NCBI GenBank assembly: GCA_040755975.1
Contig: JBFLZY010000007.1
Span: forward strand, 3,041 to 67,040
Direction: 5' to 3'
Origin: Bacillota bacterium
GTDB taxonomy: Bacteria > Bacillota > Desulfotomaculia > Desulfotomaculales > Nap2-2B
Length of the DNA: 64,000 nt
The notes beneath the pieces were generated by a model that was given only the letters and a program-made list of their open reading frames with translations, had not been told where the DNA came from and searched no databases. This document shows positions 9,265 to 59,771 of this stretch, in pieces. The stretch's first letter is position 1. Every line of letters begins with the position of its first letter. A program made the position numbers and the translations under genes.

Positions 9265-9475
9265 GGAAGGCACAAAGGCACAGAGGGACTAAGGCACAGA
9301 GGCAAAAAAGAACTGGATAGACGGGAAGAACGGGGAAATATCTGGACCTTTGTGCCTGGCAAACGAGGTTATGTCAAAACCCCGTCCCTGCGACACTCAC
9401 TTTGTGCCTTTGTGCCTGCTGCCTTTATGCCTGCTCTTGGCGGTCGTCGGTCGTCAGATGTCGGTCGTCGGAAGG
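9265..9475. repeat. Repeat-rich structured spacer: nested inverted GGCACA(A/G)AGG repeats plus a CGGTCGT tandem
   Basis: AAGGCACAAAGGCACA (9267-9282) is complementary to TTTGTGCCTTTGTGCCT (9401-9417). AGGCACAGAGG (9292-9302) is complementary to CCTTTGTGCCT (9347-9357). CGGTCGTCGGTCGTCAGATGTCGGTCGTCGG lies at about 9440-9470. Confidence 0.6.
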
Positions 9476-9509
9476 TAATGTATATTTTCTGGAGGAGGTT
9501 TTCAAAACA

Positions 9510-19179: not shown

Positions 19180-19311
19180 AATTGCGGGAGGACCACAGCG
19201 AAAAAGCCCACCTGAAGATTACTGAAACCGGTCACTTTGCCCGGAGCATGGCTTGTCCTTGCAGGAATACATATCCCTAATCCCTAACCCCTATTTTCTA
19301 AGGAGCTGGTT

Positions 19312-33194: not shown

Positions 33195-34012
33195 AAGATC
33201 TGCATTTTCGTTACCGGGACGGAACGGAGGCCCTCAGGGGCCTTTCTTTATCGATCCAAAAGGGTTCGCGGGTGGCCATTTTAGGGCCTAACGGCGCCGG
33301 CAAATCCACTTTGTTGCTCCATTTCAACGGAATTTACCTGCCCGAACGCGGGAAAGTGCGCATCCTGGGAAGAGAAGTAACGGCCAAAACGGAAAAGTGG
33401 GTGAAAAGTAAAGTGGGCCTGGTTTTCCAGGACCCCGACGACCAGGTATTCTCTTCGTCCGTTTGGGAGGACGTGTCCTTTGGCCCTTTGAACATGAATT
33501 TGCCGCCCGCGGAAGTTGCGGCCAGGGTAGAAAAAGCACTGCAGGCCGTGCAAATGGAAGAGTATAAAAATAAAGCTCCTTATCATTTAAGTTACGGACA
33601 GAAGAAAAGGGTGGCCATCGCCGGCGTGCTGGCTATGGAGCCGGAAATTATTGTGCTCGACGAGCCGATGGGTTATCTGGACCCACAGGGCAAGGAAAAT
33701 CTTCTGGGTATTTTAAACTATTTGCACCAGCGGGAGATTACCATCGTCGTGGCCACTCACGATGTAGATCTGGTTGCCGAGTGGGCCGATAGGGTGATTG
33801 TAATCAAAAATGGCCGTACCCTGGCGGAAGGGGACCCCTCTCTGCTTGCTGATGAGGATCTGGTCGGGGCGGCCCACTTACGCTTCCCGGTGGTGGTGGA
33901 AATTTTCCGCCGCCTTCCGGAATTAAACTTGCCCCGGTTGCCAAAAACGATTGCCGAAGCAGTCGAAATAATCAAAACCATTAAGCAAAACGGCGTCTCT
34001 GTATTTAAATAG
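33173..34012 (+). CDS. cbiO: ECF transporter ATPase CbiO
   Basis: Walker A GPNGAGKST, signature LSYGQKKRV, Walker B IIVLDEP. It overlaps the cbiQ end. Confidence 0.92.
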   Translation: MANIIEVEDLHFRYRDGTEALRGLSLSIQKGSRVAILGPNGAGKSTLLLHFNGIYLPERGKVRILGREVTAKTEKWVKSKVGLVFQDPDDQVFSSSVWEDVSFGPLNMNLPPAEVAARVEKALQAVQMEEYKNKAPYHLSYGQKKRVAIAGVLAMEPEIIVLDEPMGYLDPQGKENLLGILNYLHQREITIVVATHDVDLVAEWADRVIVIKNGRTLAEGDPSLLADEDLVGAAHLRFPVVVEIFRRLPELNLPRLPKTIAEAVEIIKTIKQNGVSVFK

Positions 34013-34110
34013 CTGGTTAAAAAATAACTAAATATTAAATCTCAAATGTTGTTTTTTTCGGGCAGGAGTGTTATACTCTGATCGATAGTTTAGCCAAACA
34101 ACCAGTCAAA

Positions 34111-34441
34111 GTGTCTGGTTACCAAGGAGTTGCTCATGGGAACGTACGTTTCCACCATAAGGAACTGAAAAACCACCGGCTTACCGTCCGTTTTGCCAGG
34201 AGCGACATATGCGAAGGGCCGGTAACGAGACACGGCGCAGGTGAGGTAAGCGAACCGGCAGTGCGAAACGCGCAGATACCACTAAGCAAAAATGCTAACA
34301 ATAATCGCTGGTTAGACCGGCATAGCTAAAAAACTAACGTTTCATGCGCATTTTGCAGCGCGTGCCTGGTTCGCTCCGAACCAAGCAGCTGTCTCGTCGG
34401 CCCCAAGCATCGGAGCGACGGCAAACGGACGGCAAGCCGGG
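34111..34441 (+). ncRNA. Large structured intergenic element, copy R1 (candidate novel RNA or repeat)
   Basis: A 456-nt gap with no credible ORF. Long-range helices: CCGGCTTACCGTCCGTTTTGCC (34176-97) with GGCAAACGGACGGCAAGCCGG (34420-40); GTGTCTGGTTACC (34111-23) with GGTAACGAGACAC (34220-32). The core at 34250-34374 is closed by GCGAACCGGCA/TGCCTGGTTCGC and is about 85% identical (by eye) to 44409-44532. Confidence 0.5.
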
Positions 34442-34468
34442 ATCTATTTTCGAGGGAGGAAGACCAGC

Positions 34469-35425
34469 TTGCTGCCTGTTCACCATATCTCTTTGCCGAC
34501 CCCTTATCCGGTCGGGCCAGTCAACGTGTACCTGATTTTATCCCAGCCGTACACTTTGGTGGATGCCGGGCCGGACACCAGCGAAGCGCGGGCAATGTTA
34601 AAAGATGCGCTGGCGGAGCGGGGCTTGTCGCTTACCGAACTGAAAAGGGTGGTTTTAACTCATTCCCATGCCGATCACAGCGGCCTTGCCGGGTGGTTGC
34701 ACGAAGTGTCCGGTGCGCAGGTGTTCGTTCACCCCATTGAGCTGAACAGGCTGATCAGGCCGCAGAATTTCTTTGCCGAAAGGCTCGCTTTTTTATACGA
34801 AACGGGTTCTCCCCAGGCGATCGTTGAGCAAATGATCAAGGCGCGGAATAAATTACCAATGCCCAGCATCCCGGAGGGTTGCGCGGTTGAGCTCAACGGC
34901 GGGGAAGAACTGCTTTTCGCGGACGGTTTTTTACAGGTTTACCACCTGCCGGGCCATGCGCCGGGGCACCTCTGCCTTTACGATCCCGGGGAAGACAACT
35001 TTTTTTCGGGCGATTTTCTCTTGCCCCACATTACCCCCAACCCGCTGGTGGAATTCGAGCCAGACTGCCCCGGCAAGCGCATGCATACCTTAAGTATTTA
35101 CCTGGAGGGTCTAAACAAGGTAAATGCTCTGGAAATAAAAAGCGTGTGGCCGGGTCACGGGGAAGTTTTTACCGATCACCGGAAATTGATCGCCAGTTAT
35201 TACGCGCATCACGAAAACCGGTTGCAGCACCTCCTGGCGATGCTCCGAAAACATGGCGAACTGACCGTTTTTAAGCTTAGCCGCCTGGTTTATCCGGGTC
35301 TGAACGGTTTTGATATTTTTCTTGGCCTGTCGGAAATCCAGGCCCACCTGGATGTTCTGGAAGAGCGCGGGTTAATTATTGCGCGCGAGCAGGAAAAGGT
35401 GTTTTATTACCGTGCGTTGGCTTAA
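34469..35425 (+). CDS. MBL-fold metallo-hydrolase
   Basis: HxHxDH motif in LTHSHADHSG. TTG start after GAGGGAGGA. Confidence 0.85.
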   Translation: MLPVHHISLPTPYPVGPVNVYLILSQPYTLVDAGPDTSEARAMLKDALAERGLSLTELKRVVLTHSHADHSGLAGWLHEVSGAQVFVHPIELNRLIRPQNFFAERLAFLYETGSPQAIVEQMIKARNKLPMPSIPEGCAVELNGGEELLFADGFLQVYHLPGHAPGHLCLYDPGEDNFFSGDFLLPHITPNPLVEFEPDCPGKRMHTLSIYLEGLNKVNALEIKSVWPGHGEVFTDHRKLIASYYAHHENRLQHLLAMLRKHGELTVFKLSRLVYPGLNGFDIFLGLSEIQAHLDVLEERGLIIAREQEKVFYYRALA

Positions 35426-44132: not shown

Positions 44133-44156
44133 TTTTTTGCTTTCCGTGAAACTAGA

Positions 44157-44594
44157 GGGCTGGAATTTGTCCGGGTGAGCGATCCGGCACTCAGCTTAAA
44201 TTAGCTTGTTGATTGGAGTCCAATCTAAAACCGGCATGGAAAGCATAGAATAACATCACGGAAAAGCTGAGTGCCGGGCTAAAGGGCCAGTAACCAGACA
44301 CCCGGCACTCACCGGCAATCAAGTTGCTTCGATGCTAACCAGGGCCACTTGGAACAGCAGACTCAACCAAAACACAGACTACCAGTGAGTGCCGGGCAGC
44401 TGCGGCATGCGAACCGGCAGCGCGAAAAGCGCAGATACCACTAAGCAAAAGTGCTAACGGTAATAGCGTTGGACCCCGGTAAAGCTAAAAAACTAACGTT
44501 TCGCGCGCATTTTGCAGCGTTGCCTGGTTCGCTCCGCGGCAAGCCGATGTCTGGTCGACCCGGAGCAGCGGAGCGAGCCGGATAATTCCAGCCC
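44157..44594 (+). ncRNA. Large structured intergenic element, copy R2 (candidate novel RNA or repeat)
   Basis: Closing helix GGGCTGGAATTTGTCCGG (44157-74) with CCGGATAATTCCAGCCC (44578-94). Two perfect 12-bp hairpins: 44184-95/44266-77 and 44301-12/44385-96. The conserved core is at 44409-44532. See findings. Confidence 0.55.
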
Positions 44595-44668
44595 GATGGG
44601 AAATGATGGAAGACGCTATTTTCAGGGGAGCTTAAGGTTTTCTAATCTTTGCAAAGGAGTCAGATGCG

Positions 44669-45953: not shown

Positions 45954-45995
45954 ATATTTATTCAGGATCCAAATTGCCCTGAAGGAGGGAAGATT

Positions 45996-53180: not shown

Positions 53181-53270
53181 ATTTTAAAGGCAAAAGATAC
53201 AAAAGCGCAGGGACTGAAAATTATAGGTTTGCCGTGGAACATTGGAGCGACGGCAAACGAACGGCAAGCA
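53167..53270 (+). ncRNA. Degenerate structured element, copy R3
   Basis: It contains TGCGAACGGAAG...AAAAGCGCAG... and the hairpin GTTTGCCGT (53227-35) with ACGGCAAAC (53250-58). CATTGGAGCGACGGCAAACGAACGGCAAGC is nearly identical to the R1 3' end (34409-34438). Confidence 0.35.
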
Positions 53271-53295
53271 AAAACGTTGTGTTGAGGAGGTTGTT

Positions 53296-57523: not shown

Positions 57524-58450
57524 TTGTTTAAAAAGGTCAAATGGTTGCTAGTAGCAGGTTGTATTTTTGCCCTTCTTGCAACCATGCTGGCAGGCTGCGG
57601 GGGTCAGGGACAGCCCCAACCCAAGCAGGAGGCGCAAAAACCTGCCGAACAAAAAACAACCGGACTTTCCGGAAAGATTACCGCCGTCGGTTCTACGGCT
57701 CTTCTTCCGCTGGTTGAAGAGGCCGCTAAGCAATTCATGAGCAAGAACCCGCAGGTTCAGATTGGCGTGCAGGGCGGAGGAAGCGGCACGGGACTTTCCC
57801 AGGTGGCTTCCGGAGCGGCGGATATTGGCAATTCGGATATTTTTGCTGAAGAAAAAAGCGGTATTGACGCTGCGAAGCTGGTTGATACGAAAGTTTGCGT
57901 GGTAGGCATGGCGGCGGTTGTAAACCCGAATGTAACGTTAGACAACTTAACGAAAAAACAGCTAATCGATATTTTTACCGGGAAAATAACTAACTGGAAG
58001 GAAGTAGGCGGGCCGGATCTGAAAATAGTCCTGGTCAACCGCGCGAAAGGGTCCGGTACCCGGGCGACATTTAAAGCTTTTGTCTTAGACGGTGCCGAGG
58101 AAACCGCCGGGGCGATGGAAATCGATTCTTCCGGCCAGGTCAGGAAAACCGTTGCCGAAACCCCCGGCGCTATTTCCTACCTGGCTCTGTCGTACGCGGA
58201 CAACAGCGTAAAAGCGATTAAAATAGATGGTGTAGAACCGACCGAGGAAAATATCTGCAGCGGCAAATATCCCGTCTGGGCTTACGAGCATATGTACACC
58301 TTGGGTGAGCCTACGGGACTGAAGAAGGAATTTTTAAAGTACATGGTATCTGCAGAAGTACAAGATACCCTGGTACCCAAGCTAGGTTACATCCCGATTA
58401 CGAAAATGAAGGTAGAAAGGGACGCCAAGGGTAAAGTAACGCAAAAGTAA
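57524..58450 (+). CDS. pstS: Phosphate ABC transporter substrate-binding lipoprotein PstS
   Basis: Lipobox LLATMLAGCGG; ITAVGSTALLPL...GGGSGTG...VNRAKGSGTRATF. Confidence 0.9.
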   Translation: MFKKVKWLLVAGCIFALLATMLAGCGGQGQPQPKQEAQKPAEQKTTGLSGKITAVGSTALLPLVEEAAKQFMSKNPQVQIGVQGGGSGTGLSQVASGAADIGNSDIFAEEKSGIDAAKLVDTKVCVVGMAAVVNPNVTLDNLTKKQLIDIFTGKITNWKEVGGPDLKIVLVNRAKGSGTRATFKAFVLDGAEETAGAMEIDSSGQVRKTVAETPGAISYLALSYADNSVKAIKIDGVEPTEENICSGKYPVWAYEHMYTLGEPTGLKKEFLKYMVSAEVQDTLVPKLGYIPITKMKVERDAKGKVTQK

Positions 58451-58472
58451 ATAAATTAAGGTATAAAAAGCA

Positions 58473-58488
58473 AAGAGGCACAGAGGCG
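58473..58488 (+). repeat. CACAGAG-type dispersed repeat, short copy e
   Basis: AAAGAGGCACAGAGGCGG lies about 20 nt after the pstS stop. Confidence 0.4.
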
Positions 58489-58754
58489 GTCAGTAGGAAA
58501 AAGATAAATAGGGAAGGGTAGAAGCAGGTAATGTAGAAAAATACCGATTTCCAGAGGAGTTCCCCATGACGAACTTACGTTCACTCCATAATGAATGAAA
58601 ATAGGTGCGATCTTTGCTATACTACCGTCAAGCCAAACTGCCGCGAAAGGGTCGGTTTTCCACTGGGGCCTGGAAAGCCCGTTGAGGAGTTTGACCCTGA
58701 GCGCTGAGCGCCTTGTAGGCACCGTTAATTGTTGCTACCGGTAAGGTAAGCACG

Positions 58755-58781
58755 TAAGTTAAGTGCCAGGCACTTAACTTA
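58755..58781. repeat. Perfect 13+1+13 palindrome in the pstS-pstC spacer
   Basis: TAAGTTAAGTGCC-A-GGCACTTAACTTA. Confidence 0.6.
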
Positions 58782-58825
58782 ATGGCAGAAAGCTATTTTC
58801 AAGGGAGATAAATTACGGCTGAAGT

Positions 58826-58866
58826 GCCTGGTAATTAGAAAATCACCAGGCCACCTTTGTTTTTTA
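58826..58866 (+). terminator. Terminator/attenuator-like hairpin immediately upstream of the pstC RBS
   Basis: GCCTGGT (58826-32) pairs with ACCAGGC (58845-51), followed by CACCTTTGTTTTTT. Confidence 0.45.
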
Positions 58867-58886
58867 AGAAGGAGGGTGGATTGCAG

Positions 58887-59771
58887 ATGTCCAAATACAG
58901 CGAAAGGTTGGGCAGGTTGTTTTCTTTTCTGTGTGCCGGGTTGGTAATTGTTTTAACCGTTGCGATCATTTATTTTATCAGCACAAAAGGGTTGTCTACA
59001 TTTTTTGGCAACGGTGTCAGTATTAAAGAGTTTTTGTTTGGCACCCAATGGTGGCCGGACCGTCCTCCCGAACAGGGTGGTCCTGTAGTAGGGTCGTTTC
59101 CTTTTATTTTGGGTTCAATCATTGTTTCTCTTTTAGCCGTCTGTTTGAGTGCTCCTTTAAGTGTTATTGTGGCCGTTTTTATGGCGGAAATAGCTCCCGG
59201 CTGGGGACAGAGGCTGATCCAGCCGGCGATTGAATTGCTGGCCGGGATCCCCTCTGTCGTGTATGGCTACATCGGTTTAAGTGTGCTTGTTCCGTTTATT
59301 CGAAATGAGTTCGGGGGCCAGGGTTTCAGCATCATGGCCGGTTTTCTGGTACTTTCGGTAATGATTTTGCCCACCGTCATCAGCGTATCCACCGATAGCC
59401 TGCGCGCGCTGCCCGTCCAATGGAAGCACGCGGCTTTTGCTCTCGGCTCCACCCGCTGGCAGACTATCCGGATGGTTTTGATCCCGGCCGCCCGGTCGGG
59501 GATCATTACCGGTATTGTCCTGGGCCTGGCCCGGGCCTTCGGCGAAGCACTGGCGGTGCAAATGGTAATTGGCAACGTACGCAAAATACCTTCTTCCATC
59601 CTGGACCCGGTGATTACTTTAACCAGCGCCATTACCATGGACATGGGTTACACCATCATGGGTTCGTTATGGAACAACGCTCTCTGGTCAATGGCTTTGA
59701 TTTTGCTGCTGATGTCCTTTTTCTTCATCCTGATTATTCGCGCGGTAAGCCGAAGGGGGGCTATCCAGTGA
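58887..59771 (+). CDS. pstC: Phosphate ABC transporter permease PstC
   Basis: A polytopic permease with an EAA-type loop ...SLRALPVQWKHAAFALGSTRWQTIRMVLIPAARSGI. Track start is 58857. Confidence 0.9.
   Translation: MSKYSERLGRLFSFLCAGLVIVLTVAIIYFISTKGLSTFFGNGVSIKEFLFGTQWWPDRPPEQGGPVVGSFPFILGSIIVSLLAVCLSAPLSVIVAVFMAEIAPGWGQRLIQPAIELLAGIPSVVYGYIGLSVLVPFIRNEFGGQGFSIMAGFLVLSVMILPTVISVSTDSLRALPVQWKHAAFALGSTRWQTIRMVLIPAARSGIITGIVLGLARAFGEALAVQMVIGNVRKIPSSILDPVITLTSAITMDMGYTIMGSLWNNALWSMALILLLMSFFFILIIRAVSRRGAIQ

Follow-up and report, generated by a model that had tools for sequence, protein, structure and literature searches.

The DNA considered here, called the window throughout, is a stretch of 64,000 nucleotides from a Bacillota bacterium of the order Desulfotomaculales (GenBank assembly GCA_040755975.1, contig JBFLZY010000007.1, positions 3,041 to 67,040 of the forward strand). 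Coordinates are positions in the window, unless they carry a label such as L009, which denotes a related locus from another assembly. A gap of 456 nt lies between the end of an ABC-ATPase open reading frame (ORF) at 34012 and the TTG start, at 34469, of an ORF for a protein of the metallo-beta-lactamase fold (MBL), which is followed by murT and gatD. The gap contains a long hairpin-forming element, R1, part of which recurs in a second element, R2. An earlier sequence-only reading had taken the two copies for a conserved RNA structure. We find that R1 is a discrete unit of 329 nt (34130-34458), delimited as an indel against empty alleles of related genomes, and that it is probably one copy of a lineage-specific family of non-coding, hairpin-forming repeats, similar to miniature inverted-repeat transposable elements (MITEs), which are mosaic, sit directly after GGAG and consist of exchangeable modules. 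A dedicated functional RNA gene is not the best reading of R1. The parts of the gap are the following:

34049-34077, plus strand: putative promoter of the MBL-murT-gatD operon (TTGTTT-17 nt-TGtTATACT), with invariant columns in all five orthologous upstream regions
34126-34129, plus strand: target GGAG directly 5' of R1, which the empty allele of relatives (L001 and L002, see below) identifies as the native Shine-Dalgarno core of the MBL gene
34130-34175, plus strand: left end of R1, made of TTGCTCATG, the left-end hairpin hp1 (34138-34153, GGGAACG-TA-CGTTTCC) and CCATAAGGAACTGAAAAACCA; recognised by a left-end pattern and a hidden Markov model (HMM) in at least 14 units
34176-34197, plus strand: 5' strand of the outer helix, CCGGCTTACCGTCCGTTTTGCC, a sequence seen in R1 only; it pairs with 34420-34440
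34199-34206, plus strand: 5' copy of GGAGCGAC, where the aligned homology between R1, R2 and a third copy, R3, starts
34207-34261, plus strand: 5' arm of the inner shell, ATATGCGAAGGGCCGGTAACGAGACAC...GCGAACCGGCAG, 83% identical to R3 and 66% to R2
34262-34362, plus strand: apex module, the "core" of the earlier reading, common to R2 (44421-44519); 82% identity with R2 and 55% with R3
34363-34411, plus strand: 3' arm of the inner shell, TGCCTGGTTCGCTCCG...TGTCTCGTCGGCCCCAAGCATC, delimited by the alignment
34412-34419, plus strand: 3' copy of GGAGCGAC, where the aligned homology of R1, R2 and R3 stops
34420-34440, plus strand: 3' strand of the outer helix, GGCAAACGGACGGCAAGCCGG, as seen in the fold; a related fragment lies at 53240-53269
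34444-34458, plus strand: right end of R1, CTATTTTCGAGGGAG, the replacement Shine-Dalgarno, 10 nt before the TTG at 34469

The body of R1 is a rod of about 130 bp, in which the outer helix, the GGAGCGA motifs, the inner shell and the apex are nested. The promoter-like block at 34049-34077 sits upstream of the insertion point, outside the element, and is also present in the empty alleles; since it is conserved upstream in all alleles, R1 would lie in a 5' untranslated region (UTR). That the block acts as a promoter is suggested by its conservation; a simple consensus scan did not flag it. In R1 and R2 and their surroundings we found nothing that resembles a promoter or a terminator.

The closest homologue of the MBL protein (93% protein identity) is encoded in the metagenome-assembled genome (MAG) GCA_040755215.1 (L001), where the gap between the ABC and MBL genes measures 128 bp. 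This empty allele joins exactly across AAGGAG and GACGAC, and an independent Logan contig (L002) agrees with it. Both read CCAAGGAG followed directly by GACGACCCAGCTTG, where the window has 329 nt between CCAAGGAG and GAAGACCAGCTTG; in the wider alignment, TCTGGTTACCAAGGAG continues into GACGACCCAGCTTGCTGCC in L001, and into the 329 nt and then GAAGACCAGCTTGCTGCC in the window. The site is also empty in the more distant L003 (78%) and L022 (a 20-kb syntenic contig, 64% identity), which favours a gain of R1 in the lineage of the window. The indel consists of a left arm of 46 nt, the entire rod with its outer helix, and a right arm that ends in CTATTTTCGAGGGAG. R1 adjoins the native Shine-Dalgarno GGAG of the MBL gene, and its own end restores a Shine-Dalgarno 10 nt before the TTG, so that the new GGAG is at nearly the same distance from the start codon as the native one.

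R2 lies further downstream in the window and is built in a similar manner, with additional hairpins:

44133-44630, plus strand: R2, between the fumarase-beta and HdrC-like genes, with a truncated left end and an outer helix formed by 44158-44175 and 44578-44595
44184-44277 and 44302-44395, plus strand: inserted hairpins hp1 and hp2 of R2 (distinct from the left-end hairpin of R1)
44421-44519, plus strand: apex of R2
44616-44630, plus strand: right end of R2

The likeness of R1 and R2, which the sequence-only reading had estimated by eye over a stretch of 125 nt, is real and extends further: in BLASTN, 34237-34418 and 44396-44576 are 83% identical along an alignment of 184 nt. The two strings named as shared, GCGCAGATACCACTAAGCAAAA and AGCTAAAAAACTAACGTTTC, occur as exact copies at 34270/44429 and 34324/44483 alone, with none expected from shuffled sequences. 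It had also been claimed that the outer helix differs completely in sequence between the two copies while it still pairs. In the minimum-energy fold, 34176-34197 indeed pairs with 34420-34440, the corresponding helix of R2 (44158-44175 with 44578-44595) is unrelated in sequence, and GGAGCGAC is found on both strands of R1 (34199-34206 and 34412-34419). On inspection only, the two strands of this motif are compatible with antiparallel pairing, with four Watson-Crick pairs and two tandem G.A/A.G steps, and what appears as an internal loop may be a continuous non-canonical helix. The proposal that GGAGCGAC is a duplicated target of the core is not demonstrable, as the motif belongs to a block, GAGCGAGAGACTATGCGAAG, that is conserved in other units of the family. 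As suggested there, we looked for empty sites. Relatives without R1 do exist, but they lack the palindrome along with the core; because the indel includes the outer helix, no palindrome was present here beforehand. The general idea of a mobile element with empty sites finds support, and that of a core dropped into an older palindrome at this locus does not.

Both ends of R1 recur in other units. The consensus of the left end (LE) is GGAG followed directly by TTSCYCATG, a 7-bp hairpin (GGRAACG-TT-CGTTYCC) and then CCATAA...GAAAA, which may also be written as TTSCYCATGGRAACG..CGTTYCC.CCATAA; the consensus of the right end (RE) is CTATTTTC-N1-3-RGGAG. With the LE pattern we find two units in the window (R1 and E3, listed below), two units in L005 and seven metagenome contigs, where no match is expected by chance, and an HMM of the LE adds weaker copies. 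L005 (GCA_036822475.1) is the same ABC-MBL gap in another genome, and it holds three other short units with ends of the R1 type and the same RE. In total, we catalogued about 15 distinct units of 89-331 nt in the window, in related MAGs and in metagenomes (R2 with its inserts reaches 498 nt). At least five of them lie inside the 64-kb window, and the units contain no transposase ORF. Their interiors are differing hairpins, and they are mostly arranged in tandem with junctions of RE to LE. All examined units are co-oriented with the downstream ORF, with the RE mostly 7-12 nt before its start.

The RE motif closes all catalogued units, and the left flank is GGAG in 11 of the 14 catalogued units, the remainder having GAAG, AGAG or TGAG. 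GGAG is thus found on both sides of the units; since the 3' GGAG is embedded in the conserved RE of 15 nt, a 4-bp duplication and a target plus an element end look alike. The left-end hairpin is paired in 86.7% of the alignment cells, with GGG/CCC, GAG/CTC and GGA/TCC variants. A block GAGCGA..ATGCGAAG is conserved also in units of the family that have no core. The genes downstream of the units are unrelated: they encode ComA, threonine synthase, an FAD oxidase, an NTP-transferase/PGM protein, a PRC-barrel protein, MBL/MurT/GatD, an HdrC-like protein, a pstC-like permease and a B3_4-domain protein, which excludes a leader of the regulon type. Neither L022, in which all three sites are empty, nor 21 kb of Pelotomaculum thermopropionicum contain an LE or a rod match, and the family is therefore confined to a narrow clade.

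In most left ends an ATG follows 6 nt after the target GGAG, and we considered a leader peptide (GGAG-N6-ATG and an ORF of 10-25 codons). E3 and L015 have a shifted frame, unit b of L005 has no such ATG, and the stop codons come after 30-80 nt of the unit, at a great distance from the next start; the LE is thus conserved at the nucleotide level. A protein operator, such as a cre-like palindrome, at the left-end hairpin was rejected as well, because the positions of its arms covary rather than stay conserved.

R2 and its relatives show that the rod itself is a mosaic. The site of R2 is empty in L013 and L022. An orthologue of R2 in GCA_040755215.1 (L009; the flanking protein is 95% identical) keeps the outer helix, hp1, hp2 and the inner shell, but its apex is swapped at sharp borders for an unrelated hairpin of about 85 nt. 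The relative, and not the window, carries an extra hairpin, hp3 (L009:1836-1930), on the 3' side, in place of AGCAGCG; L011 agrees with L009 here. The three hairpins hp1, hp2 and hp3 are about 95 nt long and have identical basal stems of 10 bp (CCGGCACTCA/TGAGTGCCGG), flanked by CCGG, and unrelated interiors. Hairpins of this type were found at the R2 locus only, and they look like a second layer of small insertions.

Collecting homologues brought up a third rod, R3 (L021:5574-5831, also in GCA_040755215.1), between a PDGLE-domain gene and the terminator upstream of an MCP gene; a search with nhmmer and a profile of the three rods gave no further copies. The outer helix of R3 is a perfect 20 bp of yet another sequence, and the orthologous site in the window is without R3, so that presence and absence are reciprocal (R3 only in L021, R1 only in the window). 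The identities of the modules do not agree with each other. For the inner shell, R1 has 66-79% identity with R2 and 83-86% with R3, whereas for the apex it has 82% identity with R2 and 55% with R3; the outer helices, with 26-48% identity in all comparisons, are unrelated. We conclude from this discordance that modules have been exchanged among the copies. Deletion derivatives occur too: unit 1 of L019 is an LE joined to the 3' half of a shell of the R2 type. An intergenic fragment at 53226-53272, GGTTTGCCGTGGAACATTGGAGCGACGGCAAACGAACGGCAAGC, is 93% identical over 30 nt to the 3' strand of the R1 outer helix and carries one GGAGCGAC; this remnant may have arisen by deletion, or it may be a minimal hairpin.

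R1 folds into a rod with a minimum energy of -128 kcal/mol (z = -6.9), and R2 reaches -191 kcal/mol (z = -7.7). In the alignment of the three rods (A4), 92.7% of the cells pair and 18 pairs are changed on both sides; none of 500 shuffles reaches the observed pairing, and controls with slid alignments give 31-40%. Many of the 18 double changes come from the outer helices, and four are isolated compensatory changes in otherwise conserved helices, among them CGAGACA/TGTCTCG against CCAGACA/TGTCTGG. This change lies in the inner shell, where we also see GCGAACC/GGTTCGC against GCAAACC/GGTTTGC. It is clear from this that the formation of the hairpin matters. The same sequences fold equally well when read on the opposite strand: the minus strand of R1 has -131.7 kcal/mol against -128 kcal/mol for the plus strand, and 17 units have similar folding energies on both strands, with 110 G.U pairs on the plus (sense) and 140 on the minus (antisense) strand. 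A signature of the RNA strand was therefore rejected, as neither folding energies nor G.U counts are asymmetric. Strand-symmetric pairing is explained no worse by inverted repeats that matter at the DNA level (single-stranded, as a cruciform, or kept alike by conversion) than by a selected RNA. A change from A-U to G.U between R1 and R2 had been read as tolerated in RNA only; it is not diagnostic, as the local helix differs between the minimum-energy folds of R1 and R2, and the minus strand folds as well as the plus strand. Of the selected RNA fold that had been proposed, the preserved pairing stands, now with three copies, and its specificity for RNA is not supported. Since both strands fold equally, the intact operon of the nearest relative has no element, the downstream genes are unrelated and Rfam has no match, the conservation of pairing despite sequence change does not single out an RNA.

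Several searches were made for relatives outside the family. Rfam 15 gave no match at gathering thresholds in the whole window, and with E allowed up to 10 it gave only matches at chance level for R1, R2 and ten related loci. A scan of 185,579 species genomes, which do not include the source genome, gave 3 matches to the 19-mer of the core where about 4 are expected by chance; they belong to unrelated taxa and extend over 20-26 nt only. Scans of viral contigs gave no match to the core 19-mer or to the LE pattern, BLASTN found nothing for R1 and one further unit against plasmids or for R1 against phages, and our literature searches brought up no report of a repeat of this kind from Desulfotomaculum or Pelotomaculum. 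Two other candidates were discarded. On inspection, the junction of GGAG to TTCCCC does not fit the GTTRRRY of an integron attC site with its G/TT crossover. Against a group I intron or a small self-cleaving ribozyme speak the last letter of the 5' flank, which is G and not U, and the lack of an Rfam match.

We propose the following picture. A unit consists of a conserved LE, a variable palindromic body and a conserved RE. It is placed, in a single orientation, directly 3' of a GGAG, which is usually either a gene's Shine-Dalgarno or the RE of the unit before it. As GGAG also closes the RE, the downstream gene would keep a Shine-Dalgarno at the same spacing, an insertion would be nearly neutral for expression, and the new GGAG would offer a fresh landing site on which further units could stack in tandem. 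The modules of the rod would be exchanged among copies by recombination or gene conversion, which would explain why R1 has its apex in common with R2, its shell in common with R3 and an outer helix of its own. Effects at the RNA level are possible, such as a stabilising 5' structure, internal stabilisers that resemble a Shine-Dalgarno, or a substrate of about 20 bp for RNase III. The absence of R1 in the nearest relative and the replacement of the apex argue against an indispensable RNA function. It is also conceivable, if rather doubtful, that these repeats represent a previously undescribed mobile class that homes to translation-initiation regions (TTTYN1-3RGGAG) and rebuilds them. Such a class could spread at no cost into the 5' UTRs of essential operons and the gaps between their cistrons. 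Its rod, hypervariable and with modules that are swapped, may serve as a functional part of the RNA (an mRNA stabiliser or an RNase III entry site) or the recognition module of an unknown recombinase.

Some of this evidence could also be explained by selection on the transcript. The rod might be a cis-acting structured RNA domain of the mRNA, with mobility being secondary, that serves as a stabiliser, as an RNase III site in its outer helix of about 20 bp, or in translation control. Every unit lies in sense orientation in a transcribed leader or an intercistronic gap, R1 and R2 have no internal promoter or terminator, there are 18 two-sided pair changes, four of them isolated in conserved helices, and the outer helix has about 20 bp in all three copies in spite of unrelated sequences. 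Furthermore, strong 5' hairpins and a GGAG similar to a Shine-Dalgarno in leaders stabilise mRNA in Bacillota (the STAB-SD of cryIIIA). Nevertheless we hold this to be unlikely: the same operon of the closest relative is without the element, the downstream genes are unrelated, the apex in the R2 orthologue has been replaced by an unrelated hairpin, the strands fold equally without G.U enrichment in the sense strand, no Rfam family matches, and the sense orientation is automatic if an insertion at the Shine-Dalgarno GGAG must rebuild it. For an independent small-RNA gene (6S-like or another rod-shaped regulatory RNA) with its own transcription signals, we could only find the rod-like fold (z = -6.9) and a second copy that shares the core. 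We found no promoter or terminator within or around R1, which would be inside a 5' UTR and downstream of the conserved promoter-like block; Rfam has no match, 6S included, the closest relative is without R1, and the core 19-mer matches at chance level and in unrelated taxa. This explanation is highly improbable.

Two further explanations share mobility with the one that we prefer and differ in what moves, or how. One of them is that the core between the two copies of GGAGCGAC is a small mobile element that was inserted into the loops of pre-existing palindromes, with GGAGCGAC as the duplicated target. The homology of R1, R2 and R3 is bounded exactly by the GGAGCGA motifs, with unrelated helices as flanks, the modules of the rod have demonstrably been exchanged or inserted (the apex swap; hp1, hp2 and hp3 with their CCGGCACTCA/TGAGTGCCGG stems), and the fragment at 53226-53272 is a short helix around a single GGAGCGAC. 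We still consider it improbable, as the empty R1 allele has neither outer palindrome nor LE nor RE, and the whole 329 nt behave as the unit of presence or absence. The block GAGCGA..ATGCGAAG is conserved in units without a core, no empty unit with an outer helix and one GGAGCGAC was found, and the fragment at 53 kb keeps 5-6 nt of inner sequence (CATT) before GGAGCGAC and is without most of the 5' helix strand, so that it looks like a deletion derivative. As modules are exchanged within the hairpin (the R2 orthologue has another apex), the core may nonetheless have become nested elsewhere in its origin. The other explanation would make the units derivatives of the IS200/IS605 type, similar to palindrome-associated transposable elements (PATEs). 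In this case a Y1 HUH transposase would recognise the hairpin of the LE, cut after GGAG at either end and move the unit in single-stranded form. Insertion 3' of a fixed tetranucleotide in a fixed orientation, the same tetranucleotide at the end of the element with no clear additional duplication, a conserved hairpin 8 nt inside the left end with compensatory variants and the want of convincing terminal inverted repeats would all be accounted for, and an RE that recreates the target would lead one to expect stacking in tandem. No hairpin related to the left-end one is found near the right end, however, where the hairpins vary among units, and tnpA or tnpB were not seen in about 200 kb of related sequence examined. 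To our knowledge, GGAG is not a reported target of the IS200/IS605 family. We give this explanation little credence.

A family of MITE-like mosaic repeats is what we consider likely, yet there are observations that weigh against it as well. The LE (TTCCCCATGGAAACG) and the reverse complement of the RE (CTCCCTTGAAAATAG) match, by eye, at about 7-8 of 15 positions, which is unconvincing as terminal inverted repeats. The outer helices vary between copies, unlike ends that are recognised by a transposase, and there is no transposase or autonomous copy among the neighbouring genes. The borders are perfectly clean in one pair of filled and empty sites only, and the empty R1 allele could in principle be a precise deletion. 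Finally, the full co-orientation and the four isolated compensatory changes also fit a selection on the transcript.

Other units of the family in the window are the following:

58560-58807, plus strand: unit E3, between the pstS-like and pstC-like genes, with the same LE and RE as R1 and another interior
9265-9497, plus strand: a related unit with another type of left end and octamer arms GGCACARA/TTTGTGCC; its RE, TATTTTCTGGAGGAG, is 12 nt before the GTG of a B3_4-domain gene

E3 is the second of two stacked units at 58466-58807, between the pstS-like gene (57524-58450) and the gene for the pstC-like permease (58857-59771). The first (about 58466-58559) opens with GCAAAGAGGCACAGAGGC and is of another type with the same RE; 3' of E3 there is a terminator-like hairpin, GTGCCTGGTAATTAGAAAATCACCAGGCAC, with a T-run, ahead of the Shine-Dalgarno of the permease gene. 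The unit at 9265-9497 has tandem octamers (GGCACARA in the 5' arm, TTTGTGCC in the 3' arm) and GTCGTCG repeats. Where this unit has its RE, the orthologous site of L022 shows a native Shine-Dalgarno, AACGGGAGG. Several units have direct repeats of 7-8 nt just 5' of the RE (CCCTAAT/CCCTAAC, GACGACT, TGCCTCTG, TTCCYAA). A possible degenerate unit upstream of a gene start, at 19183-19305, reads GGGAG directly followed by GACCACAGCGAAAAAGCC...CCCTAATCCCTAACCCCTATTTTCTAAGGAG, with an RE-like end and no LE hairpin. The smallest unit, of 89 nt (L012:1652-1740), lies between the CCG-domain and Fe-S genes of an mmc-type cluster in GCA_040753275.1, and it is absent from the window (45954-45995), L009 and L013. 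On a metagenome contig (L015:77-1705), the frame opened by the LE's ATG runs across the entire unit into the downstream threonine-synthase gene, so that ORF callers would add a spurious N-terminal extension of 37 codons. Directly upstream of an array of two units, an ORF of 430 aa (L017:5538-6830, minus strand) has no Pfam match at E up to 0.01.

If confirmed, the family would be a clear case at the sequence level, outside MIRUs (the interspersed repetitive units of mycobacteria), of a repeat that spreads by copying a translation-start signal of its host. It would explain how structured inserts of 100-500 nt build up within the operons of a compact genome, and it would affect how 5' UTRs and gene starts are annotated in this clade. 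There is also a warning for the discovery of RNA motifs: where two copies are palindromic repeats, compensatory pairing between them is insufficient evidence of a functional RNA. The module swaps between orthologous copies, next to a flanking protein that is about 95% identical, make a tractable case for the study of palindrome remodelling.

Known repeats share some of these features. Bacterial MITEs and mosaic intergenic repeats (ERIC, BOX, Correia/NEMIS and BIME) have been reviewed (Delihas 2011, PMC3184786); like them, the units described here are small, non-coding and multicopy, form long stem-loops, have filled and empty sites, and are intergenic and co-transcribed. What defines a MITE is found in part: small size, no transposase ORF, dispersed copies, stable stem-loops (fold z about -7), and orthologous sites that are filled or empty for R1, R2 and R3. 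ERIC has size variants due to internal insertions, and BOX and BIME are modular, as is the R1 family (in part from PMC3184786). In contrast to MITEs and repeats of the ERIC type, the R1 family has no convincing terminal inverted repeats, its closing helices differ from copy to copy, its orientation is strictly single, it abuts a Shine-Dalgarno GGAG and ends in a new one, and no partner insertion sequence is known.

MIRUs insert at start codons with minimal impact on expression (PMC12548453). The R1 family resembles them in being short, often tandem, co-oriented with the genes of the operon, and located at translation-initiation signals with little disturbance of downstream expression to be expected. 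The site of a MIRU is the start codon, where it carries a small ORF coupled to the gene with a spacing of -4 nt, whereas the R1 family replaces the Shine-Dalgarno; its ATG-initiated ORF is not conserved in frame and stops far from the next start, and coupling of this kind is not seen. Taxon and sequence differ too, and the palindromic bodies are much larger. The Neisseria REP2 (CREN) and Borrelia IR repeats contain both an ATG and a ribosome-binding site upstream of genes (PMC3184786) and are, like the R1 family, immediately upstream of ORFs. They have a promoter of their own and a co-regulated set of genes, whereas R1 has no detected promoter and the genes downstream of the family are unrelated; neither stacking in tandem nor a modular rod is described for them.

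With the PATEs derived from IS200/IS605, the family shares the subterminal hairpin on the left and the lack of convincing inverted terminal repeats, and it would share the orientation-specific insertion by a fixed tetranucleotide; the left flank (GGAG in 11/14) is compatible with insertion of the PATE type and equally with a 4-bp duplication. It differs from them in that a matching right-end hairpin is not found, the body is variable and modular, and no associated tnpA or tnpB was seen in the contigs examined. No curated Rfam 15 model matches, and the related downstream genes that would mark a riboswitch or leader regulon are not found. None of the MITE/ERIC/BOX, MIRU or REP2/IR repeats is a sequence relative of the R1 family, which has their defining features only in part; its interest is mostly in the insertion that restores a Shine-Dalgarno and in the swapping of modules.

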